From an uncultured delta proteobacterium (lineage in GTDB: Bacteria; Desulfobacterota; WTBG01; CAIYCZ01), in contig CAWDOY010000001.1 of NCBI GenBank assembly GCA_963803975.1, positions 157,463 through 221,462 of the forward strand: a DNA stretch of 64,000 nucleotides, in the 5' to 3' direction. The position numbers were made by a program, and so were the translations under genes. Below are positions 10,078 through 45,909 of the stretch, piece after piece. Within the stretch, counting starts at the first letter, position 1. Each line of letters starts with the position of its first letter. The notes under the pieces were generated by a model. That model searched no databases. It had not been told where the DNA came from and worked only from the letters and a program-made list of their open reading frames with translations.

Positions 10078-10256
10078 AGAGTCCTCCTTTAGCGGTTAAT
10101 AATAATTGAATAGCGGCTCTTTCTGGTGCAGACACCTCATGTTTCTGCGTTCACAGAAGAGCATACCCTTGCCTGAAGGCGACAGCCATACTGTTGATGT
10201 AATGGCTTATGCATCACCCCCTCTCACTTACGTCACGATTGCCATCTTAAGATATA

Positions 10257-11274: not shown

Positions 11275-11290
11275 TCTGCACAACCTATCA

Positions 11291-11439
11291 GGCTGTTGAA
11301 AAATACCCATCTGCTTCGTTGCGCTCATTCCTCGTCATTGCGACGTACGGTACAGTACGTCGCTTTCTTCAGGATTTCGCGTGCCGTGCGTCTGGATGTT
11401 TATGACCAGCCCGGGAGAAAACTACTTTTACAACAACCC
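11291..11439 (+). mobile_element. ~150-bp MITE-like element, copy 1
   Basis: Ends GGCTGTTGAAAA...TTTACAACAACC; close inverted copy at 37006-37150. Confidence 0.75.
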
Positions 11440-11441
11440 GC

Positions 11442-12200
11442 CTATTTTTTGATTTTTGTCTCTACCGGCTCCCCGGGAGCGTAGCCACCCATTTCAGGGA
11501 TGAGTGTTTCAAGATTTTCTTTCAGCGCCTGGTTTTTTTCGAGATCGGTTTTGACCGCCTCGATTTTTTTAACGTACTGCTCGCTGTTGAGCAGCTCGAA
11601 ATTCCAGCGCGGTATATTTTTATCCATGGCAGCTGCCCCGGTTTTGTCCACCGCGTCAATGGCGGCCTTGTAATCCGAGAGCGCGTCACGTATCACGCCC
11701 TGGACTTTGTCGGCGTTTTTTTCTTCATCAAGCATGACAAAGGCCTTCAGCAGCCTGGCTGAGGCGGCAACGTTATACAGCTGCCACATAACCTCCGGCC
11801 GCAGCTCACCGCCGCCGGTCAGCGTGCTGCTGCAGCGGTCAAGCATGGCGTCAAGGTGCTCCTTCAGGCGGGCGTTGTAGACAGGGACATCCTGCTCCAG
11901 CGCAGCATTATAGCGGCACATCTGGACAGATTTCAGCAGTGCCAGGGCGCTATGCCACTGCCGCTGCAGGATCCGCAGCTGCACTTCAGGCAGGGTGGCT
12001 CCGAGCTTCAGGTATGCGGCCGTTGCCCGGGCGTCATCGGTTATGGCATCAGCAGCTTCAACCTCCTGCTGAAACGTGCGGCTGTTGCGTTCGCGCTCCC
12101 TGAGGCTCTGATAACGGGAGATGTTTATGATGCTGTACAGCAGCGACAGTGCGGCCGTGAGCACGGCCCCATACATCATTAGTGTGCGTTTTCCAGTCAT
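11442..12200 (-). CDS. membrane-anchored helical/TPR-like protein, MxaK-like
   Basis: N-terminal TM helix, LYNVAA...YKAAI...PRWNFELL; lies between two vWA genes. Confidence 0.6.
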   Translation of the reverse strand: MTGKRTLMMYGAVLTAALSLLYSIINISRYQSLRERERNSRTFQQEVEAADAITDDARATAAYLKLGATLPEVQLRILQRQWHSALALLKSVQMCRYNAALEQDVPVYNARLKEHLDAMLDRCSSTLTGGGELRPEVMWQLYNVAASARLLKAFVMLDEEKNADKVQGVIRDALSDYKAAIDAVDKTGAAAMDKNIPRWNFELLNSEQYVKKIEAVKTDLEKNQALKENLETLIPEMGGYAPGEPVETKIKK

Positions 12201-12206
12201 GGTTGA

Positions 12207-13310
12207 TCAGATTTTTCTGTAATAAGGGTTTATCTGTAAAAAACAGTATATAAGGAGCGCGCAAAGGGTGCACGCGCCAAGGATCCAGCGCGTATCCTTT
12301 TTGCGCTTAACAATTTTTTCCAGGAAGCGGTTCTTTTCCATGGCATTGATTTCATTGTAAACCTCGGTGATTTTCTGCCTGCTGAAAGTCCGCGGCATGT
12401 AGAATATGTGCCCGGCCGTGGATTCTCCCTCAGGCCCTTCAAGGGCGATACGTATGTCGCTGGTGACGTCTCCCGCCACCACAATAAGATACAGTTTAAT
12501 CCCGAGCTGCTTGACCAGTGCCACCACGTTGAGAAAATTGAGCAGCCCCTTTTTCGCATCTTCCTCACTTTTGCTGGCCTCTATGCGGCCGTCGGTAAAC
12601 AGCACGATGGCCATTCCCTGCCCGAAATGAATCTTTTTCAATTTCTCCGGAATGGCTATGGAAGCGCCTGATCTGCCCACCAGCGCGTAGCGCAGGTCGT
12701 TTATCTCCTCGTAGGAGGGCTGATCTTCCTCCGGCAGCAGCATGAAGAATACGCATACGGCAAGCCAGGCAGCGTAGGACGCATTGGTTGCGCCGCCCAC
12801 GGTCAGCTCCCGGAAAATATAGGAATCAGCCCGCCTGCTCAACAGCTCAAGCTTTTGCTTCAGAATGCTCTTATCAAAAGCAGGGGGGGCGATTACCCTG
12901 GCAAAGCTTGAAAACGCCACAATGCCGATCAGATCATCCGTGCTGCGCATATCGATAAACGCGCGCGCGCCATCGAGCGCCACATCGCCGAGCGTGATGC
13001 GGCCGCCCTCATCGCCGGGCCTTCCCATGGAGCCGGAAAGATCCTGCACCAGCATGATCCATTTGGATTCAAGAAATGTCCTGTGCCAGTAGCTGGAGTA
13101 CTGGATGTTGGCTATGGCAAAAACGATGAGCACCATGACGAGCCCTGCCAGCATGTCCGCTGCGTACTTTTTTACAGGCCCTGGCTCAAGGCTGCTGCCC
13201 AGCATCGCGACCCGCGAAAATCCGGTTTTAACAGACGTTTTTTTCTGCAGGTACAGCACCGCCGGAACAAGCGCTAACAGGAGCAGTGCCCATGGGTATT
13301 GAATGCTCAT
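12207..13310 (-). CDS. vWA protein, MxaC/BatA-like
   Basis: QYPWALLLL N-terminus, MIDAS DLSGSM, DLIGIVAFS, GATN, VLFTDG, C-terminal TM helix. Confidence 0.9.
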   Translation of the reverse strand: MSIQYPWALLLLALVPAVLYLQKKTSVKTGFSRVAMLGSSLEPGPVKKYAADMLAGLVMVLIVFAIANIQYSSYWHRTFLESKWIMLVQDLSGSMGRPGDEGGRITLGDVALDGARAFIDMRSTDDLIGIVAFSSFARVIAPPAFDKSILKQKLELLSRRADSYIFRELTVGGATNASYAAWLAVCVFFMLLPEEDQPSYEEINDLRYALVGRSGASIAIPEKLKKIHFGQGMAIVLFTDGRIEASKSEEDAKKGLLNFLNVVALVKQLGIKLYLIVVAGDVTSDIRIALEGPEGESTAGHIFYMPRTFSRQKITEVYNEINAMEKNRFLEKIVKRKKDTRWILGACTLCALLIYCFLQINPYYRKI

Positions 13311-13320
13311 AGCGTGTATC

Positions 13321-14918
13321 TTACGCTGCTGCCTGCGACCCGGTCAGGTCAAGCAGACGCAGGATTTCCATTCTGATCTGATCGATCTCCGGGCAGCTTT
13401 CCTGCTCAAGGGCGACAGCGTTATCAATGGCTGCCAGCACCGTCTCCAGGGGGTCAAGATACTGCCCGGGGATATAGTTCCTGACGCTGTCGACAAAGTA
13501 GTGCGCGCTGCCGCCGGGCAGTGTACGGCTGTTGCCGTAGCGAGCCACTACATACTCGCGCAGCAGCGTTCCCGCCTCGTGAGATAGTGCCAGTGGGCGT
13601 GCGCGGGGGCAGCCTGCACCAGCACCCGCAGCCGTTCAGCAAGCAGGTCTTCTCTGGTCCGGAGCGTGAGGAGCCGCTGTTCTTGCCGCTGCCGGAAGAA
13701 TAGAACAGCTACCCATCCCAGGCACAGGATACACACCAGCAACCCTCCCGCTGCCTGCCACAGGCTGCTCTGCGCCTGGTAATGCAGGGCGGAAGCCTGA
13801 TAATCGGGCTGGACAGGCTTTGAGGGCACCAGCAGCCGGAACTCCTCTTTCACGGCCGGGACCATGGACGCGACCCGGAATGGTATTGGCCGGGTCTCCA
13901 CAGAGCGAACGGTCTCCCCCGAACAGGCGGGGCAGGTATAGCTCACGGTGACCGCCGGAATTACAAATTCGCCGGGGGCGAAGAATTTAATGCGACCCGT
14001 GATGATAACCGGGCTTTTGCTGATGACCTTGGTATAATCATAGGGGTCAAAGCTGCAGTCAAAGAGCTCCTTTTGAATAGACGCGGGCCGGAGATTGATG
14101 TTTGCAATAGAGCTGGGGTCGATGCTCACCCGGTCGGAAAACAGGATGGTAAAGGTAAACGGGACCGTGTCACCGATGCGCCCGCCACTCATGGCAAGCG
14201 CCAGCTGCACTCTGATGGAAGGCTTAAGCTCTACGAGATAGGGCCTGGCCCGGAGCACGCTGATATCTTCAGCGAGCAGGTTCAGCGCCTTGAAAAACGG
14301 GATTTCGAGAACATTCACCCGGTAGATGTTCTCTTTTTCATCGTACCCTGCCTGCGCCTGCTTCAGCAGGGCAGCTCTTCGCTCCCGGTCGGCACTTGCC
14401 TTCCACTCCAGGTCAAAAATATTGAAAAACGCCCAGGTTTTATCTTTAAGGATTATGGCCGGGTGAGTATAGAGCACCGCTTCGTCCTGGTTGAGCTGGT
14501 TTATGATTTCTTTCAGCTCATCCCGCTTCAGGCCCTCGCGCAGCCGGAAAAAGCAGGCGTCCTCGGCGATGTTTGCGTCATAAAAATAGTCAATAAGGCT
14601 GCTGCGGCTTTTAATGAGCGCTTTTGCTTTCTCCGGGATAAACGTGTCGTAGGTGTCCTCAAGTCCGTTGGCCGCACCGGCGTAGCGGGAGTCAAACACG
14701 ACGGTGAGCCACGTCATGCTGATGTCAGGCATTATTTTAGTGCTGCCATCATAAAACCAGATGTCGTCGAAGTTGAATGGGGCAGGAGCTTTTTTCTCCA
14801 GGGCGTTCGCGCTGAAGCGCGTCACTGCGGCGGCAGGAGCATGGACTGCCGAAATGCCGAGCGCCACGAGGAGCGTGATACAATATTTTTTTGTTAAGCA
14901 GTGTTTCCTACTGTGCAT
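13321..14918 (-). CDS. exported, membrane-anchored MxaA/BatD-like protein (frameshift near 13570)
   Basis: Signal peptide from MHSRKH, Ig-like APGEFVIPAVTVSY, TM helix LWQAAGGLLVCILCLGWVAVLFF. Confidence 0.6.
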
Positions 14919-14956
14919 AGAACTATAGCCGAAGATTATTTGTAATTTGTCTGTCT

Positions 14957-15092
14957 CACCAGTACCCCCTCTGACTCCCCCTTGGCCCATCGGCCGTGAG
15001 CAACTCGGCCTTGAACTCGTTGCCGAAAGGCTCAGGGCCGAACGGCAGGGGGAGAACATTGCCCCTTCTTACCAAGGAGGGGCAGGGGAGGT
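14957..15092. repeat. nested REP-like palindromic element
   Basis: CTCCCCCTTG...CAGGGGGAG and CCCCTTCTTACCAAGGAGGGG arms; the first encloses a further nested hairpin TCGGCC.TGAGC...GCTCAGGGCCGA. Confidence 0.6.
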
Positions 15093-15154
15093 CGATAAAT
15101 GCACTATAATACTTCCTGAGAGATAAATTCTCATATCTATATATGTGTAAGAAT

Positions 15155-16032
15155 CTAATAGGTTAACGGAGCCCGTTGCATGAACTCATGTAACTTGTTG
15201 GTACGGTCATCTTCAGGCGTTATCGTCACCAGGGGAATACCGGCCCGTAAGAGTCGGTTGCCCAGCGTCTCCCGCCCCTGCGCCATGGTTTCATTATAAG
15301 CCTTCCATTTGCTCACATCAAGCAGCCTGGTTGCGCCGGTTTCATAATCATAGAGCGGCAGCAGGCCCCGGGAGTACGGGGGCAGCGCCACCTCGCTTTC
15401 TTCAAGCACCTGCACTGCCTTCACATCGTGTTTGTTGGTGCCGTGGACCGTGCGGTGGAAGCTGTAGCTGAAGTCAAGCGGATACATGAAGTCCGACAGA
15501 ATAAACGTCAGGCTTTCGGGGACTTCAGTGACCAGCTTGGTCAGGGCGATCTGCAGGCTGGTGGAGCGGCACGCCACTGGTTCCGCGCGGGCAATGGCCG
15601 CAAGAATCTCCATGAAATGAGACCGGCCCATGCGCGGCGGAATATAGCTGACGATGTCATCGGCGAACAGGATCAGCCCGCAGCCGTTGTTGCTCATGAT
15701 GGCGCTGTAGGCAAGCGACACCGCGATGTGCGCCTGGAGCAAGCTCCTTGCGGCCGAAGCTCACTGATGCTGCTGATGTCGTAGAGCAGCATGACGTTGA
15801 AATAGCTTTCGGCAAGGTACTCCCGCACGTAATATTTCCCGGTCTTTGCTTTTGCCTTCCAGTCGATGTTTTTAAACGGGTCGGTCGGCTCAAGCTCCCG
15901 CAGCGACCAGAATTCATAGCCCAGGCCTTTGAAGGTGCTTTCCCAGTCACCGGGAAACGGCGCGTTCACCCGGTGATTGATAAATATATCAAGCAGCTCT
16001 TTTTTTGACAGCAGGCTCTGTTCTGTTTTCAT
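15155..16032 (-). CDS. DUF58 (MxaS-like) protein (frameshift near 15745)
   Basis: GLGYEFWSLREL...DPFKNIDWKAKAKTGKYYVREY, DISS, FILSDF. Confidence 0.9.
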
Positions 16033-16040
16033 AGTGCCCG

Positions 16041-17064
16041 TCAGTACGGCCGTATGGTCTGCAGTATCTCCTGCACCAGCATGTCGGAGGTTATCTGCTG
16101 GGAAAGGGCACTGCTGTTGAGCAGGATGCGGTGCCTGAGGACGTGAACTGCACAGGTGGCCACATCATCAAAGGTGACAAAATCCCGCTGCCGACAGAAG
16201 GCATAGGCCTTTGCCAGCGCCAGCAGCGACTCTGTCGCACGCGGCGAGGCCCCGAGCCGGATATACTGGTGCACCTCGCTGGCTGCAGCCTGCTCTTTAT
16301 AGGTTTCATTCGGCCGGGTGGCAATGCAGATATTTAAAATGTAGTTCATGACCTTCCGGCCCACCCGCACCCGGTCATGGATGAGCTGCTGGATGGCAAT
16401 AATATCCTCAAGGCTGAAAACCTTCTGCACCGCTGCTTTCAGCTGGTCGAAATTGGAATTTTTTCTCTGCATGCAGCTCAAACTCCTCATCCTTGTGCGG
16501 ATACCCGACATCATATTTTACCATGAACCGGTCAACCTGGGATTCCGCCAGGGGATAGGTGCCGATCTGCTCAATCGGGTTCTGGGTCGCCAGCACCATG
16601 AAGGGATTGGGTATCGCATAGCTCAGGCATTCGATGGTTACTTCCTTTTCCTGCATCGCCTGCAGCAGCGCGGACTGAACCTTCGGCGATGCGCGGTTTA
16701 TTTCGTCGGCGAGAAAAATGTTGCAGAAAACGGGGCCGAAGTAAAAATCAAATTTCCTGTCCTTCTCATTCCACACCATGGTGCCGGTTATGTCGCTGGG
16801 CATCTTGTCCGGGGTGAACTGGAAGCGTTTGAAATTGCCGCTGATCACTTTTGCAAAGGTTTCAACAACAAGGCTCTTTGCCAGGCCCGGGACCCCCTCC
16901 AGCAGTATATGGCCCTTTGCCAGAAGCGCATACAGTATGAGGTTGATCATCTCCTCCTGGCCGATCACAACTTTTGCGATCTCAGCTTTTACCTGCTGGA
17001 TCTGTTGTGCATACCGGGTGAACTGCTCTTTCGTGCCGTCACCCGCTGTCACCTGATTCTGCAT
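16041..17064 (-). CDS. moxR: MoxR family AAA+ ATPase (frameshift near 16460)
   Basis: HILLEGVPGLAKS, FLADEINRASPKVQSALL, ATQNPIEQIGTYPL, GASPRA, VLRHRI. Confidence 0.95.
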
Positions 17065-17106
17065 ATGAAAGGTCCCCGTTGTTACGGCATCAGCATACCA
17101 GCCATG

Positions 17107-18148
17107 CTACATATATTCAAACCGCTTGCGGTACTTTATAATCAAGATAGAGAAAAAACGGGCCGCCCAGCAGCGACGTGACAATCCCGATCTTCAGGTC
17201 AACCTTAACGATAAGCCGGACAAACAGATCGGCATAGATAATAAAGACTGCCGCCAGCAGCCCGGCAAAGAAAACGAGCTTCCGGTTGTCCGGGCCGATC
17301 AGGCTGCGCATAATGTGCGGGGCAATCAGCCCGACAAAACCGATAACTCCCGATACGGCAATCGCGCCCCCGGTCTCGATGGATGAAAATAAGAGGAGCG
17401 CATTGCGTGCCTGCTTGATATTGACGCCCAGATTGGACGCTGTTTCTTCTCCGAGCATGAGGATATTCAAATCCCTGACATAGAACAGGGTCCCTGCCAG
17501 CGCTACGACCGTGGTGGGGAATACTATGCTCACATGCTCCCAGGAGCGGTTGTTCAGATCGCCCATGAGCCAGGTCACGATCACCCGGCCCACATCAAAC
17601 TCCCTGGTGCTCAGGGTGATGACAAAGGAGGTCAGTGCGCCGAATACTAAATTGAGCGCTATCCCCGCGAGCAGCAGCGTTGATACCGATGTCTGCCCCC
17701 GGGAGGTCGCGATGGCAAAGACCATGACCAGCGTCAACACGGCAAACAGTATGGCGGCAAGGGGCAGGGCAAACAGCGAATGGGCTGCCAGGCCGGCATA
17801 GATCGCCAGCACCGCGCCCAGCGCCGCCCCTGAGTCAATACCCATAACCCCCGGGCTTGCCATGGGGTTCTTGAAGATTCCCTGCATGATGGTGCCGGCG
17901 CCGCCGAGAGAAAATCCCACCAGAAGCGCAACCAGGAAGCGGGGCAGCCTGCCGTCCCAGACGATGGCGGCTTCAACGTCGCTGACGCTTCCTGTATAGA
18001 ACCCGAGTTTTGCAAGAATAATTTTAAATACATCTATAATGGCAATGGGCCACTCCCCTGACGTCAGGGTAAAAAAACCCCCCAGTACAATGAGCCCTGA
18101 CAATGCGCCGGCCAGCAGCGCTTCTGAAGCCTTAGGGCTGTTGCGCAT
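17107..18148 (-). CDS. FecCD/BtuC-family ABC transporter permease
   Basis: RLPRFLVALLVG, QGIFKNPMASPGVMG, LGEETASNLGVN, GVIGFVGLIAPH. Confidence 0.9.
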
Positions 18149-19181
18149 ACAAAACTCCGGCAAGCAGATCGGCGCTTAAGAGCATGAACTGGGAATCAAC
18201 CCGCAGATACACCCCGGGAACATAATACACTTTTCCCTGTTTATGGCCTGCGCAAAGGAGAGAACCTTATTGGACATCAGCAGCTCTCTCAGCTTGCTTC
18301 CCCGGGGAACGATAATAACATCGGGGTTCCATTTAAGCAGTGTTTCATTATCAATCTGCGACCAGGATTTAATGCCCTGCTCAGCCCCGACATTAACGGC
18401 GCCGATGATGCTGCAGATGGAATTAAAGTTTGATGACCGGCCCGGGATATACCCGCCTTCATCGTAATAGAGCACACGAACCGGCTTGTTGCCACCGGGG
18501 ATGTCTGACTTCAGTGCCGCGATTTTTGCATCGATTAGATTAACCAGTGCCTGCGCATTGGCTCTCTTCACCGACAATTTTTCCGATGAGCAGGATCTGC
18601 TCTTTAATGGACTCAATTGATACCAAAATAGCCGAGGTCAAAACAGGGGATCTTCGCCTGTCTGAGCTTTTCTTTAAAATCAGCGCCGGAATAAAAAACG
18701 GTAAAGACCAGGTCCGGCTGAAAGCCGATAACCAGCTCTGTCTGTTTTGATTTAAAAATCGGGCCCCGCTGCCGTACTTCATCTGCAATAAAGCTGAATT
18801 CAGGATCAGCGGAAAATTCATTGAAGGCTACCAGCCGCTCACGCGGGCAGATTGCCCATAATATCTCTGCAACGCCCACCGCGTGGGGAATTATGCGCAC
18901 GGGCTGCTTCGCCAGGGTGAACGCTTTTTCTTCCTGCGGAAGGCATCAGTCTTAAAATCATACACCTTGAAGGTATAGGGTATGGTGCGCGGCCAGCTGT
19001 TGGTTTGCGCTTCACCCCTGACCAGGCTCAGCGCTTTTTTTAAATCATTCATGGGCAGGGGAGGGGAACCGTCCGGACTGCGCGCTGCCCCGCCGCGGGA
19101 GAGCAGCAGGCAGCAGAGACAGCAGGCCAGGTTACTGAGAAGCTTCGCGCACGCTGCAGACCACCGACGACTGTTATGCAT
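18132..19181 (-). CDS. BtuF-like (type III) periplasmic binding protein (several frameshifts)
   Basis: RIIPHAVGVAEILWAI, ELVIGFQPDLV, WSQIDNETLLKWNPDVII. Confidence 0.8.
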
Positions 19182-19938
19182 AAAAATCGAGAAAAGTGGC
19201 GCTGTCATTTTTGATATTCCCGTACCTGCACATCAAATACCTGTTTAATATTCTCCGGGGAGAACGCATCCTGCGGCGAGCCGGTATAAAATATTCTTCC
19301 CGCGATGAATAATTGATATCGTATCGCAGAATTTTCTGCGCAAGGTTCAGATCGTGCATGGTTACCAGGATGGTTTTGCCCTGCGCCCGCAGTTCGAACA
19401 GAATGTTCATAATTGCCAGCGTGTGCTTGATATCAAGCTCGGCGGTCGGCTCATCCAGCAGTATCAGGGATGCTTCCGTTGCCAGGGCGCGGGCGATTAT
19501 CGCCAGCTGGCCTTCTCCGCCGGACAGCTCATTGATGATTCGGTCCTTTAGTGCATACATAGCGGTCTGCTGCAATGCCCGCTCGATTATTTCCCGGTCC
19601 TTCTGCTGCACCCCTTCAAAGCGTCCCAGATGCGGGTTGCGCCCCATGGAAACAATATCAAACACCGAGATGGGAAAACTGACCGCGGTGTTTTGCGGCA
19701 CCAGCGTAACCAGCCTGCTCAGCTCTTTTCTCGGTATGGTGCGGTAGTTTTTGCCCTCTATCAGGATGGTGCCGGACTGCGGCTCCCATATCCGGCAGAC
19801 ATTTTTCAGCAGGGTTGATTTGCCGGAGCCGTTCGGGCCGATGATGCCGTGAATTTTGCAGGGTTCAAAATGGACTGAAACCCCGTCAAGGATTTTTTTA
19901 TCTTCAATTGAAAAATGGATATCCTGTATTGTGAGCAT
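19174..19938 (-). CDS. BtuD/FecE-type ABC transporter ATPase
   Basis: GPNGSGKST, GRNPH, LSGGE, LLDEPT. Confidence 0.9.
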   Translation of the reverse strand: MLTIQDIHFSIEDKKILDGVSVHFEPCKIHGIIGPNGSGKSTLLKNVCRIWEPQSGTILIEGKNYRTIPRKELSRLVTLVPQNTAVSFPISVFDIVSMGRNPHLGRFEGVQQKDREIIERALQQTAMYALKDRIINELSGGEGQLAIIARALATEASLILLDEPTAELDIKHTLAIMNILFELRAQGKTILVTMHDLNLAQKILRYDINYSSREEYFIPARRRMRSPRRILNRYLMCRYGNIKNDSATFLDFYA

Positions 19939-19950
19939 ACGGCAACAGTC

Positions 19951-20734
19951 CTATGAGCACAGCCTGAATTTGTATGCAACCGGCAGAATAAATTTTGCTA
20001 CCACGACACAGAAGAAACCAAAATATACGGATATGCTTATTGCCGCTGCTGTCAGGTCCGGGGAGAATTCAGCGGTTATGCCCAGTGCCGCCCAGATGAA
20101 AATCTGCCCCAGCAGCAGCTGAAAGTTCTGGGCCAGGGTATATATTACCCAGAAGTTCTGCGAGAGCTTGAAAATTTCGCCCCTGCGGATTTTTATCTCA
20201 ATGATTTTAAACCAGGTCCGGCCCTCAACAATCTGGGACGATCCGTCGCACACATGGTGCAGCAGATACAGTACTACCAGCAGGTGGGGAGCAAAAGAGA
20301 GGCTCTGAAAGAAGTATTTAAAAACCGGCGGAAAGCACAGCAGCAGGCAGACTGCCCCCAGGGACTGGCCGATGGCGATTGCCCACCTGCGCCCTGATTA
20401 AGCGGGGAATCTGCAGGCGCGGGTCCTGCGCGACCTCCAGCTGATCTATGAATTCCGATGTGTAGGTGCTCGAAATCATGGTTATCCCCGGATAGGCGTA
20501 TTTCACCAGCACCCCCAGGATTGCAGCAACTTTCAGCTCCTGCTCGGCCATTAAAAACATGGTATAGAGAATCACGCCGTCAAGGATGTTTTTCCCGATA
20601 GTATAGCAGATATTGCCCGCCTCGCCATAGCGATAAAAGGGCACTGAGATAAGGGCTGAAATATATAATTTTATTTTTTGCGGTAAAGCCGGGGGTGTGT
20701 AGCCGGGGTATGTTGTTGTCTGGTCTTTTTCCAT
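19951..20734 (-). CDS. uncharacterised polytopic membrane protein (frameshift near 20385)
   Basis: ORFs 20318-20818 and 19951-20253 join through hydrophobic IAIGQSLGAVCLLLCFPP...LLVVLYLLHH; several TM segments. Confidence 0.6.
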
Positions 20735-20812
20735 CTGCAGAAGCTCGGCAATGGCTCTGACCTGTTTTGAAGAATCCCGGTGGTGCTGTCTATTCGGGGA
20801 AGAAACAAACGA

Positions 20813-20853
20813 AAGCACAAAAGGGGCACTGACTGCATGCCCCTTTTGTGCTT
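20813..20853 (-). terminator. intrinsic terminator after eutBC
   Basis: 16-bp perfect inverted repeat AAGCACAAAAGGGGCA/TGCCCCTTTTGTGCTT. Confidence 0.75.
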
Positions 20854-20859
20854 CAAGGA

Positions 20860-23147
20860 TTAACTTGCCTGCATTATTTCTTTGAGCAGTTTTACCGTCA
20901 TTTTAGCAGCCTCTTCAGGCTTTGTCGCCTGGTTGGAGATGCCGCACACGACTTTCACGATATTGTGGTCGCACTTCTTTTCTGCCCAGACTGTTGCCTT
21001 GGGCGCTGCGATATACACGGAGAATGCATTCTGGCCGGTGCCCGGCCGTTCGCCAATTATATGAATAACAGCTTTGTTCTTATTCGGGTCTGATTTTCCG
21101 AACAGAATATCGCCCGCCATGTATACCCGGCCCGCACGCGGCCGCTGGTACAACAATGTTCTGCTCCCCAACGGTCAGCCTGCATCTTTGAGCTCTTTTC
21201 TCACCTCGTAATATATGGCATGAGATGTCCCTGAGCCATGATTGAATTGGCGTTTAACCCGTCAGAGATAACAATCTGCACATCAGGATCTTTCCCTGCC
21301 CATGAATCCCGCAGCTTTTCAAGGGTTGCCACTGACTGCTCGTTCAGTTGTTCACCGGTAGTGGGACGGACAATGTAGTTTTCGCGGTCCTTCGACAGGG
21401 TAGCAAGCTGAACTGCATTGGGAATGGTCTTTATAAACTCCGGGGTAAACTCCGCCCAGATAGCTTTTTTGGCATCAGCGTAGAGTTCACGTATCCTCTT
21501 GTCCAGTCCCGGATTCAGATCCCAGATATTTTTACCATATCCGGAGGCCAGAGGTACTTTGTTTCCGGTCTCAAGCCACGTATTATAAATAGCATCAAAC
21601 TTCTGTTTGCCTTCAGCATATATTTCCTGTTCAGAGCGCTTGTCGCCTTTAGCTGCGCAGAACTGATAATATACCCAGATGGGATCTCCGAAGTGCTTGG
21701 TGGGTTTGCCGTTCTTGTCAATAACCTGGATGCGCTTGAAGAATTCCCACATGGCATCATTTACCTTGAAGCCGAATTTGTTGCGCAGGCGCACATGGTC
21801 CTGGTATGAGGTAGTCAGGTAGCTCAGCATCGGGTCATTCCTGGTAGGAAGAGCCATGAGATAGGCCGGGTTTGCCGGCATAATCTGATCCTGGCACCAC
21901 TGCAAGGTCATCAAGGCTTACTGACATGTGCAGGGTGGAGCAGATATCAAGGCCGGAAGTGAGCCCCTGCAGTTTGCCCATTAATATATCTTCAAGGCAG
22001 CAGCGCACCAGCTGTTCCTTGGTTCTGAACACCTCCGGGCCGATGAAACCGGCAACATCATTAAAATGAGTATAGGCGCCCTGCGGCTGGACTTCAGCAA
22101 GGGTCTGTTTCAGCCCGCGGGCAAACCCGTACTTGCGGGATTCAAGCACCACCATGTCCACGCCTTCAGCAGCGCCGTTGGTGAAATCAGAGCCCTGGCC
22201 GGTCTCGTAATACAGCCCGTATCGTCTGATCCTTGCGGGCTTTTGCATGATTGACCATCTTTTCAACGGTCACGTCAAACACCTTGTTTGCCGCGTCAGT
22301 TCCTGCCAGGCTCTGGAAGAAAAAATCAACCAGTTCCGGCTTCTCTTTAAAAAGTTCCCCCTGCACGTCAACATGGGATAACACGCACCAGGGAACAATC
22401 CCCTTTAATTTGAACGCATCGACAACATCCTTAAGGGCTGCTTCTACTTTTGCAGTTTGTTCTTTTGTCCCGTCCACCGGGTTAGTCCCGAGCACTAAAT
22501 CGCCTACCGCGTAGGAGAATCCATTAAGTGTCTGCCAGATAATTTCCTCGGGATCATCAGTGGGGGAATTGGGCTGAATGCGGGCGCTCAGATAGCCTTT
22601 GGCCCCGATCTTGGTGCCGGGCAGCGGATTGAAGATTTTCTTGTCTACCGCAATCAGCTCCTGATTGCTCATGAGTTTGGGCATACAGCCAACCACCTCG
22701 CTGTTCATGCCGTACATGACTGCCTTGATTTCAGCTTCAGGCTTGGTCAGGAGATAGGTTTTCATCTTCCCCATGGTCCAGTCCTTAATTTTTTCGTACT
22801 GGGCCGAATCAGTTGCTTGGGCGATAAATTTGTAAAGATTGTCATTAAGCAGGGGGTGCTCCGTGATATCCTTGATTTTGGTATTAGCTAAAAGCTTACG
22901 GGCATTTTCCCTGCTGGTATTATCGTCGGCAGCATACGCCGATTGCCTGGTCACCCTCTTTAAAGGCATTTGCCGCACCGATTACCTGCTGATACAGTGT
23001 CTGGTCAAAAGAACCCTTAACCCGTTCAATATATTTGAAGACATCTTCACCGGGTTTGACGTCCTTAATGGCGATGGCACTGCTGTACGTGCTGAAAGCA
23101 AAAACCCCGAGGGCAATCATCGCTGTGATCGCAATAAATCGTTTCAT
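20860..23147 (-). CDS. eutBC: fused EutB-EutC ethanolamine ammonia-lyase with N-terminal signal peptide (5 frameshifted ORF pieces)
   Basis: EutB motifs ARIQPNSPTDD, GTNPV, YETGQGS, VAGFIGPE, LEDILMGKL, MLSYLTT; EutC motifs RPTTGEQL, DVQIVISDGL, IGERPG. Confidence 0.9.
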
Positions 23148-23256
23148 ACGCTGATCCCTCCCATATAAAATAGGTTATTCAGGTTGTTTGCGTCCTGCTC
23201 GGTAAAACCCAAGACTCAATTTTTATAATTATTTGAGCATTTACTTCTTGCGCAAG

Positions 23257-23290
23257 TAAACAACCCCGCCTTTTCAGGCGGGGTTGTTTA
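23257..23290. terminator. hairpin between the porin-like gene and eutBC
   Basis: TAAACAACCCCGCC-ttttca-GGCGGGGTTGTTTA. Confidence 0.7.
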
Positions 23291-23327
23291 GCTGTACGCT
23301 TCTTTCAAATCATAGTTGTCAGTCAGC

Positions 23328-24153
23328 TCAGAAAGCCACTTTAAGAGTAACGCCGCCATAGACCCAGCTGGAATTTGTATTTGAGTCGGGGCCGCGTGTT
23401 ATAGCATTGAAACTGCTCTGTCTGATATTGGTCTGCGCTTTATTGCTCATCGGACATGAGTAGTTAATTGACGGCACGATCGTTACAAAGCTGTTGAGCG
23501 GGATGTTGTATGCCGCCCAGATGTTGGCGTCGTGCATGGCCTCGTAGTCGTAACTCGTGCTGTTGATGCTCATGTAGCTGATCCATCCGCCCACATCCAG
23601 AGACTGTTCTCCGCAGTAACCGAAGATTTCTCGTTTGCCCGTGGAAAAAGAGTGGGATACCCCTAAATTAATATACCAGCGGTCTCCGCCCAGGGCTATT
23701 TCCCGGTATATGCTGAGGGTCGGCTTGAGCAGCACATCAAGGCCCAGGGTCGTAAACAGTTCCTGGCTGGCTCTGGTGATACGTGGAGGGATCGATATCG
23801 TAATAGATGTAGCCGAAGGTGTAGTTCAGTTTTTTCCAGCTGTTGCTGTAGGTGAGTATCCAGTCTGTTTCCCACCATTTATTCTGGGAATCTTCCCCCG
23901 GGTTCCCCTTATATGCGGTATCAAGATCGCCCCACATATTCATGCTGAACCCCTTGTAGGAAACGGTAATGGAGGGGAACATCACCAGGCTGTCCTTGCT
24001 CAGTTCATACCCTCTCCACACATACTTTGAATAGAATGTCCAGGAGAGGTTGCAGGTAGGCCGCTCCTCCTTGTCCTCCTGGGCAAGCACCGCGGTGCTG
24101 AACGAAAACACCATGAGGCCAAGCATAATTGTTAGAAGAATTTTTTTACCCAT
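23328..24153 (-). CDS. putative outer-membrane beta-barrel porin (TorF/TIGR02001-like; frameshift near 23760)
   Basis: Signal peptide, SKYVWRG, ETDWILTYS, GYIYYD, C-terminal GVTLKVAF. Confidence 0.7.
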
Positions 24154-24243
24154 TATGTACTCCTTTCATTTAGTTTTTAAGTTCTAATATCTCGCCAGTT
24201 TTCATTACATTTTCATGTGATACCTTCAACCGTACTATCAATT

Positions 24244-24696
24244 TTATTCTGCGGCTTCAGGGGCTACAATTCTTGTGCCGCTAAAGAAGAAAAAAATGGG
24301 ATCCGTGGGAACGCCCTCCCCTTTCAGCAATGCAAGCCCCACTCCTAACATGGTCTTACCTTCACTAAGTATCGCGCCGGTAAAATACATGGAGAGGCTT
24401 GAAGCAGCTATGCCGCCAACTTCCACATCGTAAGCGCTATAGGTAGTAAGAAAGTATGTGTTTGGATCCAAGACATACGTGTAATATGATCCTTTGCCAG
24501 CCCCAAGCGAAAGCAGGAACACAGTGTCTGTTTGAAAGGTAGCATCTGCATTGAGGTTTATACCGACTGATGTCATAATCGACAACCGATACACGCTTCC
24601 TGTCAGCACTGTTTGAGCGTTTGCGGCTACTGAAGAAATGCCGATTAACAGAACCGCGCAAAAGCAAATAGCTAATAGTTTTTGTTTTTTCAACAT
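24244..24696 (-). CDS. secreted hypothetical protein
   Basis: Signal peptide ending ANA-Q; GGAGG RBS. Confidence 0.7.
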   Translation of the reverse strand: MLKKQKLLAICFCAVLLIGISSVAANAQTVLTGSVYRLSIMTSVGINLNADATFQTDTVFLLSLGAGKGSYYTYVLDPNTYFLTTYSAYDVEVGGIAASSLSMYFTGAILSEGKTMLGVGLALLKGEGVPTDPIFFFFSGTRIVAPEAAE

Positions 24697-24746
24697 AGTG
24701 TCCTCCTTTTTGTTTGGTTTGTTAACAGTTCTTTACCCCTTGTTTT

Positions 24747-25208
24747 TTACTCTACAACTATTGTGCCCGTGAACTCCTTGCCTGCTTCGATTGCTCCCTT
24801 CTGCCCCGCGGCTTTCATTTGGGAAGGCCGCGTAACTGTATACTTGTATGTTCCCCTTTCAATAAAGCAGATGCTTGCCACCGCACCGAATTTAACCTTT
24901 TTGGCAATAAAAGCGCCCTTTGAATCCTTGTTGAAATTGACCGGGTTCTCGCAGGCAGTGGTTATCTCTTTATCGGGAAATATTATTGACACCGGTGCCA
25001 TGGCTTCGTTGAGCCAGATTACCGTGGTCCCGAGATTGACCTTCAGGGTTTCAGGACTAATGCCGTTGGGATAGTTAACCTTGATGACCTGGTGCCCCGC
25101 AAGTGTCTTTTCCTGGGCTGCGCCTTCCTCTTTTGCCATGGCAGTATTGAAAGGAATCAGGATTAAACCAATACAGGCAACTAATAATAAAACCTTTATT
25201 ACTTTCAT
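24747..25208 (-). CDS. secreted cupredoxin-fold-like protein
   Basis: Signal peptide; PETLKVNLGTTVIWLN and F..RGTYKY; GGAGG RBS before MKVIKV. Confidence 0.6.
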   Translation of the reverse strand: MKVIKVLLLVACIGLILIPFNTAMAKEEGAAQEKTLAGHQVIKVNYPNGISPETLKVNLGTTVIWLNEAMAPVSIIFPDKEITTACENPVNFNKDSKGAFIAKKVKFGAVASICFIERGTYKYTVTRPSQMKAAGQKGAIEAGKEFTGTIVVE

Positions 25209-25738
25209 AGATACCTCCGTGCTGATTATTTTGTTTTTGAGCTGCAAGAAAAACTTCCCCTATATAGCGTCTCTTTTAAAAAGAGTTATAAAAATTATGT
25301 TGTTCGGAAAAAAACAAGATGCCGCCGTTAGTACTTTATAGTAGCTGTAACAGCTCAGTATAAATAGTAGAGCAGCATCCTATAGCAGACGCAATCTTTG
25401 TCTCCTCAGTTAATAACCATGATGGTTTTGCCAACCATCCCCAACCCCCTGTTGCCGGAGGATTAATTTATTAAGTTTAACTAAACACCTTGATTTTATA
25501 ATGTCAAGCGTTTTTTTTATTAAATAATATAATATTTCCGCTCTACTTGTAGCCCTACGATAAGAGTTTTCAAGAAAAAATTAATTTTATATTTATAGTA
25601 ATATTAATTTATTTTGCAAATAATGTTTATTGCACGGGTGATATTTAATTGACTGTTAAGGACTTTTGATATAAGGGTACACATAATTATAATGTACCGG
25701 GTGGTGTGCAGAGAACAACTTTTTACAGGGGGTCTTGC

Positions 25739-26575: not shown

Positions 26576-26971
26576 ATGATTACAAAGCTGCTGACCGGCG
26601 CTATTATCATATGCCTTTTTTTCAGCTGCTGCCGTTTTACCAGACCCGCTAAAATCAACACAGGCCCGGAGTTCATAACCTTTGAAGCTGACCTCGGGCC
26701 TGTTCTTTTTTACCACCGCAAACACCAGCGCTCTCTGAAACAGAACTGCGTCCAGTGCCACCATAAGGGCAGCGAAAAGACCCCTGCCTGCCGGAGCTGC
26801 CATAAAAAGAAGCAAGATACTGCTGAAGAAGACCCGATCTGCTTTTTTGACGTCACGATGAACCTGTGCCGCGGGTGTCATCAGCGGGAGCGCGACCAGG
26901 AGACCTCAAAAAAAGCCCCCATCCACTGCAACGAGTGCCACGACACGAAAAAAATAAAGTGGTCAAAGTAA
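26576..26971 (+). CDS. tetraheme cytochrome c3-family protein, probable lipoprotein
   Basis: GPVLFYHRKH and four CxxCH motifs (CVQCHH, CRSCH, CRGCH, CNECH). Confidence 0.9.
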   Translation: MITKLLTGAIIICLFFSCCRFTRPAKINTGPEFITFEADLGPVLFYHRKHQRSLKQNCVQCHHKGSEKTPACRSCHKKKQDTAEEDPICFFDVTMNLCRGCHQRERDQETSKKAPIHCNECHDTKKIKWSK

Positions 26972-30421: not shown

Positions 30422-30450
30422 TTGACACCGTCAAACTAATGGAGTATTAA
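30422..30450 (+). promoter_or_regulatory. sigma70-type promoter of the riboswitch leader
   Basis: TTGACA-N17-TATTAA directly upstream of the riboswitch. Confidence 0.65.
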
Positions 30451-30454
30451 TTTT

Positions 30455-30622
30455 AACATAAAGGTACCTGCTATGGTTTAAAAGGGAAGATGGTGAGAAT
30501 CCATCATGGTCCCGCCGCTGTGATCGGGGACGAAATCCACGTAATGCCACTGTCCTGAGATGAATCGGGATGGGAAGGTTTGGAGAGTAGGATGATCCGA
30601 AAGTCAGAAGACCTGCCTTTAT
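30455..30622 (+). ncRNA. cobalamin riboswitch
   Basis: AAAAGGGAA..GGTGAGAATCC...CCCGCCGCTGTGA, GCCACTG, GGGAAGG and B12 box AAGTCAGAAGACCTGCC, upstream of cob genes. Confidence 0.95.
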
Positions 30623-30676
30623 GATAGCAGTCGCGGAACTCGATCCTTGCATAAAAGGGTGAAGTAAACTGGGTGC

Positions 30677-30718
30677 AACCCTCAGGCTGTAGTTATGACC
30701 TGAGGGTTTTTGTTTTTT
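30677..30718 (+). terminator. riboswitch expression-platform terminator
   Basis: AACCCTCAGG-loop-CCTGAGGGTT followed by a T-tract. Confidence 0.85.
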
Positions 30719-30904
30719 GAACCAGATGAACCACAGTAGGACACAGAGGTTACATTGTATAATTTTGATTTGTCTTCTGGGTCGTCCCTGTGATGTTTTA
30801 ATAATTACAGCTATTTACATAACGGTTATTCTGCCATCGGCGAGCGCTCAGAGAACCGCAGTATTGGGGGAATTAGATTCTTCTGAGATCTCAGTGGTTA
30901 TCTT

Positions 30905-31435
30905 ATGTCCGAAAAAACTCTCACACTCGTCACCGGCGGCATCAAGAGCGGAAAAAGCTCCTGGGCGCAGCAGCAGGCTGAGCGCTTAAGCGGCACCAGG
31001 GCGTTTGTCGCGACCGCACAGGCGCTTGATGATGAGATGAAAGACCGCATCGCAAAGCACCGGCAGGCACGGGGGGATGCATGGGTAACCTTTGAAGAGC
31101 CAAAAGACCTGGTGCCGCTGGTGGATGATATAACCGGCAGGTTTGATATCATCCTGATCGACTGCCTGACCATATGGCTGTCAAACCTGCTCACGATCTA
31201 CCGGATGGATGAAGAGGCGGCAGCGCAGCAGATTGCAGGGCTCAGCGCATGTTTCAGCCGGGCCGCGTCCCGGGTATTTGTTATCTCCAATGAAACCGGC
31301 ATGGGGATAATACCTGCTGATCCGCTTTCCCGGCTGTACCAGCGACTTCTGGGCAGTTTGAACAGCGAGGTTGCCGCGGCAGCGGACGAAGTTTATCTCA
31401 TGGTCTCCGGCATCCCGGTGAAGATAAAACCGTGA
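30905..31435 (+). CDS. cobU: adenosylcobinamide kinase / guanylyltransferase
   Basis: LVTGGIKSGKS, RIAKHRQAR, LIDCLTIWLSN, SNETGMGIIP. Confidence 0.95.
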   Translation: MSEKTLTLVTGGIKSGKSSWAQQQAERLSGTRAFVATAQALDDEMKDRIAKHRQARGDAWVTFEEPKDLVPLVDDITGRFDIILIDCLTIWLSNLLTIYRMDEEAAAQQIAGLSACFSRAASRVFVISNETGMGIIPADPLSRLYQRLLGSLNSEVAAAADEVYLMVSGIPVKIKP

Positions 31436-31647
31436 CTCGTGGCACGTGATTCGTGACTCGAGGAAACGAAACAAAGAGAAGTGCGGATTGCGGAACTGAA
31501 AAAGGCAACAGGCAATAGTGCACAAAGTAATTGCGGATTTGAGATTGCAGCGTGCAGATTTAAGTAAGGTACAGAAAATAAAGCTGATAGCTGACAGCTG
31601 TCAACTGATAGCTTACTTGAACAACTCAAAACTTAAAACTAAAAACT

Positions 31648-33184
31648 ATGCACTGCAGCATACTGCTTCTGGAACATCCCCGGCCTTCCTCGGCAATCCA
31701 TTTCAATGACGTGGCCAATACGCCCCTGTCATCGGGGCTTTTGAGCGGCTATATTTCATCGCTGCTTGAAGCGCGGGGCGTCTCCGTGAGCCTGCATGAA
31801 GCATATCCCTCTGCCGGGTCTTTCCAGGACTGCGCAACAGAGCTTGACCGCCTGGAGTTTAGCGTTCTGGGCGTCAACGCAGTATATCTCTGGGAGAAGA
31901 CCGAAGAGCTGTTTTCATTCTTAAAAAACTGAAGGCCCGCCGTCCGGACGTGTCCGTGATCCTGTACGGCTTTTTCCCCACCTTTTCCTTCCGTGAAATT
32001 CTTTCCCAATACCCGTTCATTGACTGCATCATTCTGGGTGAGCCCGAGGAAACTTTTGCTGACATAGCCGCAAGCCTGCAACAGGATGGCTGCATTGATT
32101 TTTCAAAAATACCGGGTCTTGCCTTTCGGGAAAACGGGAAGGTCACCACCTCGGGAGAGAGGGCGCTCATCGAGCCGCTTGACCGGCTGCCGTTCCCTGA
32201 GCGCAGCGAGCAGTTCCTGAAAACAGTCGGCGGCAATATTCTGGCCAGCCGGGGCTGCTACGGCCAGTGCAGTTTCTGCTATATAAATTATTTTTACGGG
32301 CACGGCTGCCAGTGGCGCGGCCGCTCCCCGGATAATGTGGCGCAGGAGATTGAAGAGCTGTATCCGCGCCTGCCGGAGCCCTCTATCTATTTTGTCGATG
32401 CGAATTTTTTCGGCCGCGGAAGCCTTGGCCGCACGCGCTCGCAGGCTATTGTCGAGCGCATTAAAGACTGGAGCGATCTCAGCTTCGGCATCGAGTGCCG
32501 CAGCAATGACCTGGATGAAGAACTTGTCAGCGCTATGGTGCAGGCGGGCTTGCGGCAGGTATTCCTGGGCATTGAGAGCGCATCAAAAGCATCGCTTGCG
32601 CGCATGAAAAAAGGGGTGCGGCTGGATATGCAGGCGGCGGCAGTCAAAATGCTGCAGGCCCATGGGGTAGAGATTAACCTCGGGTTTATAATGTTTGAGC
32701 CTGATACTGCGCTTGAAGATGTGCGGCTAAATTTTCAATTTTTGAAAGACAATGGCCTGCTGGACTCTCTCTCCTGCACGGCTAATGTCCTCTATCACCG
32801 GGAAATTGCACTGCAGGGAACTGAGCGTTTCAAACTGCTGCAGGCAGAAAACCGCCTGCAAAAAATCGACCCCCTGGGGTATGAAGGCAGCTACTGTTTT
32901 CTCCAGGAACCGGTCCAGTTCCTGGCAGACCTGATGGATAGCGTATGCCGGGGCTGTTTTGCAAAAAATGGATAACTGCGAGCTCCCCGATTTTCTGGGG
33001 CAGGGAAAGCTCCGCGGCAGCGCTTCGGCTGAATGCTTACCTGGTCTATTTCTTTGAAGAGGCGCTGCGCAAGCTTGAGCTGAAGGAGCTGTTGCTGACT
33101 CATGAGGAGCGCATGCGCTGGGAAGAGCGGGCCTTGGCAGTGGTCGACGGGCTGATCGTATCCGAGCGGGTGTGCCAGCTGTGA
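31648..33184 (+). CDS. B12-binding radical SAM enzyme, BzaD/BzaE-like (frameshifts near 31925 and 32960)
   Basis: N-terminal B12-binding-like region, GEPEET, ASRGCYGQCSFC, FVDANF, FLGIES; lower-ligand gene context. Confidence 0.8.
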
Positions 33185-34184: not shown

Positions 34185-34330
34185 GCACAAAGGCACAGAG
34201 GCAGAAGGCACAGAGGCAGATAGAGGCAAAGAGGCAGATAGGCAATAGGTAAAAGGATGAGTCATGATCGTACGGCTGAACCGAACCTTTAACCTCGAGC
34301 CTGTTCACTATTCACTGTTCACTGATAGCG

Positions 34331-35392: not shown

Positions 35393-35688
35393 AAAAGGGT
35401 TCAAGGGTTCGAGGGTCCAAGGGGCGAAGTAAAGAGTGATGAGTTCAAGGCATAAGGCAACCCACCTTCGCGCAAGGCTACGGTGGGCAGGTAGGCACAG
35501 AGAATAAGTGCTGAGCGATGAGTGCACGATGTGAGTGAGAGAAAAGGCGGATGAATGGGTGAATGCGGAATTTCAGCTTTTCACGCTTCCAGCGTTTGAC
35601 TCGCCACTGGTCACTGGTCACGAGTCACTGAATTTAAGGTGAATGGCTCGAACGGGGTCAAGTTCAACAGAAAAGGAGATATTGCAGC

Positions 35689-36993: not shown

Positions 36994-37001
36994 CGGGGCT
37001 G

Positions 37002-37901: not shown

Positions 37902-38064
37902 GTTTGATCCTGAGCGTGGCTGAGTTAATTAAAAAGTAATCTGGAACTCAAGAATTAGGAAAATTTATTTTTATTTTGGTGATTCGCATGAAACAACATC
38001 AATTCGGGTTAGGTTTCCTAGGTAAGTACGTACTTTACAATTTATTAGCAGTGTTTTAAACGGT

Positions 38065-39006: not shown

Positions 39007-39067
39007 AAAATATGCATGCTGATATGCTGACAGCTGTCAGCTGATAGCTTTTCGAAGAGGCTTTTAT

Positions 39068-39694: not shown

Positions 39695-39695
39695 T

Positions 39696-45869: not shown

Positions 45870-45909
45870 GGTCAGCTAGATCAGCTATCACGAGCCTCGA
45901 GTCACGACT

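Follow-up and report, generated by a model that had tools for sequence, protein, structure and literature searches.

A single-chain EutB-EutC protein with a predicted Sec-type signal peptide, probably an exported ethanolamine ammonia-lyase, in an uncultured deltaproteobacterium

The stretch of DNA described here (the window) comprises 64,000 nucleotides of an uncultured deltaproteobacterium (GenBank assembly GCA_963803975.1, contig CAWDOY010000001.1, positions 157,463 to 221,462). Its minus strand carries, between positions 23147 and 20860, a gene in which EutB and EutC, the two components of the B12-dependent ethanolamine ammonia-lyase (EAL), are fused in one chain behind a predicted Sec-type signal peptide. 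To our knowledge, the adenosylcobalamin radical enzymes have been regarded as residents of the cytoplasm or of microcompartments; they rely on adenosylation in the cytoplasm and on reactivases driven by ATP. The family to which the window protein belongs is probably exported, and its gene, fold, signals and neighbourhood are presented below.

A fused gene carried over five reading frames

In the list of open reading frames (ORFs), the EutB-EutC gene is read as five overlapping frame pieces, all on the minus strand. Piece 1 (22920-23147) begins MKRFIAITAMIALGVFAFSTYSSA, and its residues 38-73 align to positions 3-36 of the NCBIfam EutB profile; the hydrophobic segment at its start is therefore located upstream of the entire EutB domain. 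Pieces 2 (22187-22978) and 3 (21835-22266) match positions 23-264 and 272-366 of the Pfam EutB profile, piece 4 (21201-21914) matches both the end of EutB (365-434) and the start of EutC (32-120), and piece 5 (20860-21171) matches EutC positions 159-226. The EutB scores of the window pieces are 244, 135 and 66 bits. An earlier note, made from the letters of this DNA alone, had seen EutB and EutC motifs sharing the frame 21201-21914; Pfam indeed places both domains on this piece, so that the fusion is independent of the frameshifts described below. A stop between the B and C parts was looked for in the frame of piece 4 and none was found.

When eight single-base insertions or deletions (indels) are discounted, the whole fusion gene (20860..23147) amounts to 761 codons and a stop. 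A Shine-Dalgarno-like GGGAGGG, read from the sequence, lies at 23156..23162, 8 nucleotides (nt) before the ATG at 23147. Codons 1-24 (23076..23147) would encode the Sec/signal peptidase I signal peptide, with a predicted cut between A24 and I25. They are followed by the EutB domain (21645..23033, approximately residues 39-500 of the intact protein, these coordinates being approximate owing to the indels), by a helical linker (21495..21695, approximately residues 484-550) lying between the Pfam EutB end (483) and EutC start (551), and by the EutC domain (20869..21494, approximately residues 551-759), defined by its match to Pfam PF05985.

The indels are spread over 21124..22935 and were recognised from frame switches relative to an intact homologue, protein P0001, and from opposite indels in the contigs of relatives. 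A tblastn search covers residues 1-761 of P0001 by five high-scoring segment pairs in the window, and the indel sites were located by reading the junctions in three frames. One extra base is found near each of 22932, 22225 and 21901 and at each of 21129 and 21124, while one base is missing at each of 21209, 21178 and 21148; five of the eight fall within 90 nt (21209-21124). The net correction of -2 bases converts 2288 into 2286 nt, exactly the length required for the 761 codons and stop of P0001. The same tblastn comparison shows no in-frame nonsense substitution across the five pieces, within which protein identity to P0001 is 83-100% and lowest across the indel cluster. Contigs for comparison came from three DNA runs and one RNA run holding close relatives, 90-99% alike. 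The opposite indel is present in these short-read contigs at 8/8 sites, the first three (22932, 22225, 21901) being each covered by at least two runs and the five-site cluster (21124-21209) by one contig of one run only.

Seven of the nine neighbouring genes that can be compared with intact homologues are split over at least two frames as well, and so is a second paralogue of the gene, on contig C48. A genome of the same genus contains an uninterrupted open frame of 778 codons, 86% identical. Since the neighbouring genes are split alike, the eight frameshifts are most likely assembly errors and not gene decay, and the copy in the window is very probably intact in the organism, whose genome was scored 98.13% complete. 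The repaired single chain of about 760 residues announced in the earlier note thus holds, with 761 residues, with intact homologues of 760-761 residues and with the uninterrupted frame of the same-genus genome; the number of indels does not, as it is larger than that note implied. Along the long operon to which the gene belongs (8976-25247, minus strand), nearly every gene extends over at least two frames, a sign that single-base indel errors pervade the assembly. An ORF-based reading of this genome therefore needs homologue-guided correction.

Enzyme signature, fold and distribution of the family

Profile and structure comparisons, which the earlier note had named as a check, were run on the intact homologue; both domains were matched and the fold agrees. 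P0001 reaches 638 bits on the NCBIfam EutB profile NF011649 (cut-off 554, residues 39-500), 490.6 bits on Pfam EutB PF06751 and 118.3 bits on Pfam EutC PF05985 (cut-off 25.8). Against the sequences of the PDB, phmmer retrieves Listeria EutB (E 9e-67), E. coli EutB (E 8e-58) and E. coli EutC (E 2e-12). The window pieces themselves retain the motifs SARIQPN, GTNPV, YYETGQG, GLDICS and AYLMALP. The claim that the EutB substrate-binding residues are kept can be extended from these motifs to the full set: the HMMER alignment to 3abo_A reveals identical residues at all six E. coli active-site positions. In a 48-sequence family alignment, the counterparts of E. coli R160, E287 and D362 (R189, E314 and D400) never vary, and those of Q162, N193 and M392 (Q191, N222 and M430) reach at least 90% conservation.

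An AlphaFold2 model of the P0001-type protein, built on the same 48-sequence alignment, has a mean predicted local distance difference test score (pLDDT) of 92.7 and a predicted template modelling (TM) score of 0.89, with only residues 9-22 below pLDDT 50. Foldseek superposes the model on 3abo_A with a TM score of 0.90 and a root-mean-square deviation of 2.1 over 460 columns, in agreement with the TIM barrel of the solved structure. The EutC chains 3abo_B and 7xrm_B follow with TM scores of 0.69-0.71, and diol and glycerol dehydratases come far behind, at 0.51. The interdomain linker of about 70 residues is modelled at high pLDDT as helices 488-498, 505-526 and 545-562. Behind the ETGQG strand the family has about 11 inserted residues, and its EutC part is divergent.

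Canonical EALs (E. coli, Salmonella and Listeria; PDB IDs 3abo, 5ysr, 7xrm and 2qez) share with the window family both domains, the fold and the six active-site residues. They are made of separate EutB and EutC polypeptides, whereas the window protein joins both in a single chain through a helical linker of about 70 residues; it bears a predicted N-terminal export signal and is devoid of the microcompartment-targeting N-terminus of EutC. The EutA, shell and EutH genes of the canonical Eut system are missing from this genome, and the EutC part stays below the equivalog cut-off.

A homologue search with the junction piece, directed at longer proteins, returned 2966 matches at E ≤ 0.001 among 3547 candidates. 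The 120 homologues listed from it all possess both Pfam domains in a single chain, and 105 of them are at least 740 residues long, mostly 760; the closest among those listed is P0001, with 97% identity over the 237-residue junction piece. P0001 in turn has 1356 matches at E ≤ 0.001, and 212 at E ≤ 1e-30, among 1.84 billion cluster representatives, including several full-length fused clusters of about 690-840 residues. Related loci retrieved from species-representative genomes number 55 and span at least six phyla. They are found in metagenome-assembled genomes (MAGs) of Desulfuromonadota and Thermodesulfobacteriota, in Geobacter, Acidobacteriota, Planctomycetota (Pirellula), Ignavibacteriota and Balneolota, and many belong to Bacteroidota, including the cultured Flavobacteriia Leeuwenhoekiella, Polaribacter, Saonia, Muriicola and Robertkochia. 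Geomonas sp. RF6 possesses a close homologue, protein P0112. The distribution is patchy at short range, the gene being present in 11 of 41 genomes related to that of the window (10 of 25 genera).

The genome of the window holds two EutB loci, both of the fused type, and no other EutB. The second, diverged paralogue (contig C48, 51405-53540, minus strand) is also of the Sec type; it is closest to protein P0105, has the related loci L001 and L060, and adjoins an Ech-like hydrogenase module together with a ferredoxin-fused aldehyde:ferredoxin oxidoreductase (AOR). Four more distant fused relatives have no signal (P0138, P0141, P0127 and P0132). Two of them, P0138 (707 residues) and P0141 (693 residues), are single-chain EutB-EutC proteins with the same type of linker, 38-39% identical; they differ from the window family by the absence of any N-terminal hydrophobic or twin-arginine translocation (Tat) segment, and root outside the exported clade. 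Canonical-type fusions at 33-35% identity (P0175-P0223) are likewise without signal. The cluster representatives P0122 (1110 residues) and P0247 (1144 residues) harbor the fused body behind N-terminal extensions of 400-480 residues, unlike bacterial signals.

Predicted export signals at the N-terminus

Substrates of signal peptidase I follow an n-h-c layout, with small residues at positions -3 and -1. The N-terminus of the window protein is formed by MKR, a 15-residue hydrophobic core, FIAITAMIALGVFAF, and the segment STYSSA. Statistics on this region were drawn from the 105 listed homologues of at least 740 residues, of which 102 could be anchored on the mature start [IV][TA]IK(D)VKPGEDVF; the other three (P0020, P0106 and P0108) are gene calls starting inside or after the hydrophobic stretch. 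Among the 102, position -1 is alanine in 101, and position -3 is serine in 75, cysteine in 24, glycine in 2 and alanine in 1. The longest run without charged or strongly polar residues has a median length of 18 (range 11-21), and the net charge ahead of it a median of +2.

Tat signals display an S/T-R-R-x-F-L-type motif before a mildly hydrophobic core. This motif was looked for in the window copy and is absent; RR is also absent from 99 of the 102 listed homologues, and in the remaining three the MKR directly before the core has become MRR. The Sec-type N-terminus without twin-arginine noticed in the earlier note is hence a property of the family, its layout being kept in 102 of the 105, and the region ahead of EutB, examined for a start further downstream, is conserved as protein in the homologues. 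A DNA comparison with seven related loci indicates that the 24 signal codons gather many non-synonymous changes while keeping length, hydrophobicity, the ATG-AAR-MGN (Met-Lys-Arg) start and the cleavage motif. Such fast residue change at constant length, hydrophobicity and cleavage motif fits the evolution of a signal peptide. In the AlphaFold2 model the segment is a detached helix of low confidence. A lipoprotein signal was considered and rejected: the window copy has no cysteine at -3, and in the 24 homologues that do, a tyrosine precedes it where a lipobox needs G, A or S. The window EutBC is thus predicted from its sequence to carry a Sec/signal peptidase I signal peptide.

The N-termini of the 55 related loci were sorted after extending the ORFs to the first ATG. 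Twin-arginine signals (SRRDFL..., TRREFL..., LTRRRVLQTG...) are found at 20 loci of Bacteroidota, Ignavibacteriota, Planctomycetota and one deltaproteobacterial MAG (L058). An RK variant of the Tat motif occurs at 12 loci of Flavobacteriia, Saprospiraceae and Balneolota, nine of which continue with an L/F-x-G-C lipobox, and two Bacteroidota loci combine a single R with a lipobox. Sixteen loci are Sec-like as in the window (Desulfuromonadota, Thermodesulfobacteriota, Acidobacteriota and others), and five have a truncated N-terminus or no ATG. Because orthologues in other phyla bear Tat or lipoprotein signals, export appears as a trait of the family. The genome of the window encodes TatC, and its Sec-type signal is therefore not there for want of a Tat system.

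A maximum-likelihood tree was computed by a quick method with the signal columns excluded, and rooted on the signal-less fused proteins P0138 and P0141. The Planctomycetota Tat forms branch off first. Twenty Sec-like rows form a clade together with the Tat-bearing L058, and the sister of this clade assembles the Tat, RK and lipoprotein forms of Bacteroidota, Ignavibacteriota and Balneolota, three changes being sufficient between Sec-like and Tat/lipoprotein labels. The Tat type looks ancestral and the Sec type derived, a polarity that hinges on the outgroup root, with four long branches flagged as unreliable. The locus L058:9941-12281, deltaproteobacterial and nested inside the otherwise Sec-type clade, encodes a twin-arginine signal beginning MTRRNFLVMVGAGG; its neighbours are an outer-membrane barrel, an SBP_bac_6 protein and an AOR, and several genes typical of Sec-type operons (see below), namely those of the 260-residue membrane protein, the BtuFCD-like transporter and MoxR, are missing. 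It is the most informative natural contrast for the question of cofactor loading.

The operon, a proposed mechanism and its rivals

The gene order around EutBC was established by Pfam analysis of the intact syntenic loci L007, L008 and L056 and by tblastn back to the window, all genes lying on the minus strand. Upstream is a gene for a small outer-membrane barrel protein with a signal peptide (23328..24153), in two frames here and located with the L007 homologue; the L008 homologue has a weak Gcw_chp match in Pfam. Still further upstream, at the head of the operon (24247-25247), two small signal-peptide proteins of 150 and 166 residues belong to no Pfam family. The downstream partners occupy 15155..20818. 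The first encodes a multi-pass membrane protein of about 260 residues without Pfam family (19951-20818; TM260 hereafter), followed by an ABC ATPase (19174-19938), a Peripla_BP_2 binding protein, an FecCD permease (17117-18163), a MoxR ATPase and a DUF58/VWA protein. The tail of the operon adds further exported or VWA proteins and then an SBP_bac_6 binding protein.

Two very stable stem-loops bracket EutBC on the mRNA strand, inside the operon. One (20812..20854, minus strand) comes directly after the stop codon and is terminator- or attenuator-like, with an 18-pair stem and a U-rich tail (-30.6 kcal/mol, z -6.7); the other (23250..23299, minus strand) is located between the barrel gene and the EutBC start (-35.9 kcal/mol, z -7.4). 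They may provide differential expression or transcript stabilisation.

TM260 is conserved (also at L007:12400-13191) and contains the stretches SVPFYRYGEIGNI and HHVCDGSAQIVEGRTWFKI. In the ESM Atlas it retrieves nameless clusters and a weak resemblance (0.94) to fragments of MOP-type exporters (Polysacc_synt_3, MatE, ANKH), which is a weak lead and not an assignment. Its gene adjoins EutBC in 13 of the 16 Sec-like loci and in none of the 34 Tat, RK or lipoprotein loci, where EutBC stands alone among unrelated neighbours with no such transporter nearby. As nearly all Sec-like loci form one clade, the association of Sec signal and operon is a clade-level pattern and not a proven dependence. Genes for AOR or aldehyde dehydrogenase (ALDH) are found near L007, L008, L009, L050, L053, L056, L058 and L059 as well as near the second copy in the genome, and no signal peptide was seen on them where these neighbouring genes were read.

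Searches of the genome for the other components of an ethanolamine system gave little: for EutA there is only a partial match of 30 bits, covering 44 of the 475 profile positions, profile searches returned no match to microcompartment shell genes or EutH, and a PduO-type adenosyltransferase was not found. Two CobA genes are present, one of them within the window. Control of EutBC by a riboswitch was considered and rejected, as Rfam detects no cobalamin riboswitch before EutBC in the window or in six related loci, nor any riboswitch ahead of the ABC transporter that accompanies it in these same loci. A cobalamin riboswitch does occur elsewhere in the window (30445-30634, 118 bits), heading an anaerobic cobamide biosynthesis cluster (30445-50162, plus strand) with CobU, a ThiC-family radical-SAM gene, CobT, CobS, CbiB, several corrin methylases, CbiG, CobA/BtuR, CobQ and genes of the haem branch; the ThiC-family gene (35689-36990) possibly encodes a benzimidazole synthase. 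Another cobalamin riboswitch, in an Acidobacteriota MAG (L056:8077-8249, minus strand), controls a divergent TonB-dependent receptor gene adjoining the EutBC operon.

Fused EutBC proteins have been described before. Pelobacter carbinolicus, with strains that grow by cleaving ethanolamine, has only fused eutBC genes (eutBC-1 and eutBC-2, Pcar_0491 and Pcar_0467) and no eutA (PMC3543383). Around them lie genes for a periplasmic binding protein, a multi-transmembrane protein, a corrinoid-type ABC transporter, VWFA proteins, an ATPase and the biosynthesis of cobalamin (PMC3543383), a layout that, from the passages on these genes, is the same as in the window; in both organisms the gene is duplicated and eutA absent. 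These passages of PMC3543383 do not mention a signal peptide or export. No paper on an exported or periplasmic EAL was found in the full-text literature searched, most subscription journals being outside its scope, and the passages of the review PMC5821096 on fusion, periplasm and signal concern no fused or exported lyase. As far as these passages go, the kind of enzyme is known and the fusion has been known since 2012 (PMC3543383), and neither the export nor the Sec-type variant and its transporter operon seem to have been described.

Two groups of exported enzymes offer partial parallels. Corrinoid reductive dehalogenases such as PceA and RdhA are located on the outer face of the cytoplasmic membrane; they are exported by Tat with their cofactor bound and perform cob(I)alamin chemistry with Fe-S clusters, without adenosyl-radical chemistry. 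The signal of the window protein is of the Sec type and differs in this from their Tat export. In the periplasm, methanol and methylamine dehydrogenases turn a small C1-C2 substrate, by oxidation or deamination, into a toxic aldehyde, and they make use of MoxR/VWA helpers of the MxaRSACKL type. A MoxR ATPase and VWA proteins are found in the same operon in both cases, while the dehydrogenases differ by their cofactors (pyrroloquinoline quinone with Ca, or tryptophan tryptophylquinone) and, as proteins, are unrelated to EutBC.

Taken together, the profiles, active site, fold and N-termini suggest that the protein is an exported, periplasmic B12-dependent EAL in a single EutB-EutC chain, a reading to which we give a probability of about 70%. 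The pre-protein would cross SecYEG unfolded and be cut after Ala24, and EutBC would fold and bind adenosyl-cobamide in the periplasm. Ethanolamine would be split there into ammonium, to be taken up, and acetaldehyde, which would diffuse into the cytoplasm and be oxidised by the cytoplasmic AOR or ALDH encoded near many copies. In this way the periplasm would keep acetaldehyde out of the cytoplasm, a role usually ascribed to the microcompartment. More speculatively, the co-operonic BtuFCD-like ABC importer may return spent corrinoid for re-adenosylation by CobA, and TM260 and the MoxR/VWA module may have a part in delivering or exchanging the cofactor.

Tentatively, and as a possibility that we hold to be doubtful, this would be the first adenosylcobalamin radical enzyme outside the cytoplasm, its Sec-type clade having its own periplasmic B12 logistics that jointly replace EutA. 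Here a BtuFCD-like importer without riboswitch would recycle spent corrinoid, an exporter-like TM260 would deliver adenosyl-cobamide outward and MoxR/VWA would load or exchange the cofactor, the periplasm serving as the acetaldehyde compartment.

If the protein is an exported EAL, adenosyl-cobamide would have to be available and handled in the periplasm, and radical chemistry and cofactor repair would be manageable there without ATP. Some bacteria would then make toxic, volatile acetaldehyde outside the cytoplasm rather than in a protein shell. The natural split between Tat-type and Sec-type members would offer a ready-made comparison for the site of cofactor loading. Furthermore, a "eutB" match in a sediment or marine metagenome would not necessarily mean that ethanolamine is taken up or that microcompartments are formed.

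Several points weigh against an exported, periplasmic EAL. Localisation, activity and the periplasmic B12 supply are what we infer from sequence. We know of no route for adenosyl-cobamide into the periplasm. The periplasm offers no ATP for a reactivation of the EutA kind. The EutC part of P0001 reaches 93.6 bits on the NCBIfam EutC equivalog NF003971, whose cut-off is 230, and the comparison of active sites takes R160, Q162, N193, E287, D362 and M392 to be the active-site residues of E. coli EutB. Fusion alone need not mean export, because P0138, P0141, P0127 and P0132 are fused without signal. The operon with TM260, BtuFCD and MoxR genes is missing at 3 of the 16 Sec-like loci, and the co-variation of signal type and operon amounts to two independent contrasts on the tree (sign-test p 0.5). 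Finally, the contigs bearing the opposite indels stem from relatives, 90-99% alike, and not from this organism.

Four other explanations were weighed. The best surviving, although unlikely, is that the protein is an exported B12 radical lyase whose physiological substrate, instead of free ethanolamine, would be a different vicinal amino alcohol or related small amine. The genome has two diverged paralogues on separate starred branches of the tree, and the insertion after the ETGQG strand and the divergent EutC part are also compatible with a different substrate. For its own two paralogues, the account of Pelobacter speculated on different substrates, in the passages concerned (PMC3543383). Conversely, the family conserves all six residues aligned to the positions at which E. 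coli EutB binds ethanolamine, and the neighbouring AOR and ALDH suit acetaldehyde.

Less probable is an exported protein that has lost catalysis and binds or scavenges corrinoid as a partner of the adjacent BtuFCD-like importer. The embedding of EutBC in an operon with a Peripla_BP_2/FecCD/ABC ATPase transporter in the Sec-type clade would suit such a role, as would the riboswitch-controlled TonB-dependent receptor adjoining the operon at L056. A mere binding protein, however, would not hold catalytic and substrate-binding residues invariant across six phyla; besides, no transporter of this kind is found near the 34 Tat, RK or lipoprotein loci, and aldehyde-oxidising enzymes are recurrent neighbours of EutBC.

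A further explanation, slightly more improbable again, is that the hydrophobic N-terminus is an uncleaved membrane anchor or results from a mis-called start, the catalytic body being cytoplasmic. It draws on the three database entries (P0020, P0106 and P0108) whose called start falls within or beyond the hydrophobic stretch, and on the existence of signal-less fused relatives. The basic residues ahead of the core would nevertheless put the body outside according to the positive-inside rule, 101 of the 102 listed homologues retain S/C-x-A ahead of a highly conserved mature start, a ribosome-binding site precedes the first ATG, and the canonical SRRxFL Tat motifs of orthologues make sense only for export. 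Least probable of all is a real pseudogene inactivated by its frameshifts, suggested by eight indels in 2.3 kb, five of them within 90 nt, and by opposite-indel contigs that come from relatives, but contradicted by pieces that keep 83-100% protein identity to P0001 without nonsense substitution, by similar splits in 7 of 9 neighbouring genes and in the second paralogue on another contig of a 98% complete genome, and by a net correction giving exactly 761 codons.

A few minor observations complete this description. Contigs of the metatranscriptome run X16 match parts of 21205-22931 at 90% or more; they were not counted as expression, as they belong to relatives and the run could include DNA. 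The runs holding relatives are labelled mostly as sediment metagenomes, with at most 0.32 of the sampled words per run, and habitat was not used. Elsewhere in the window, and unrelated to EutBC, a gene at 5553-6806 (minus strand) encodes a GH114 glycoside hydrolase fused to MopE-type metal-binding repeats, and another at 26576-26968 (plus strand) a class III multihaem cytochrome c.

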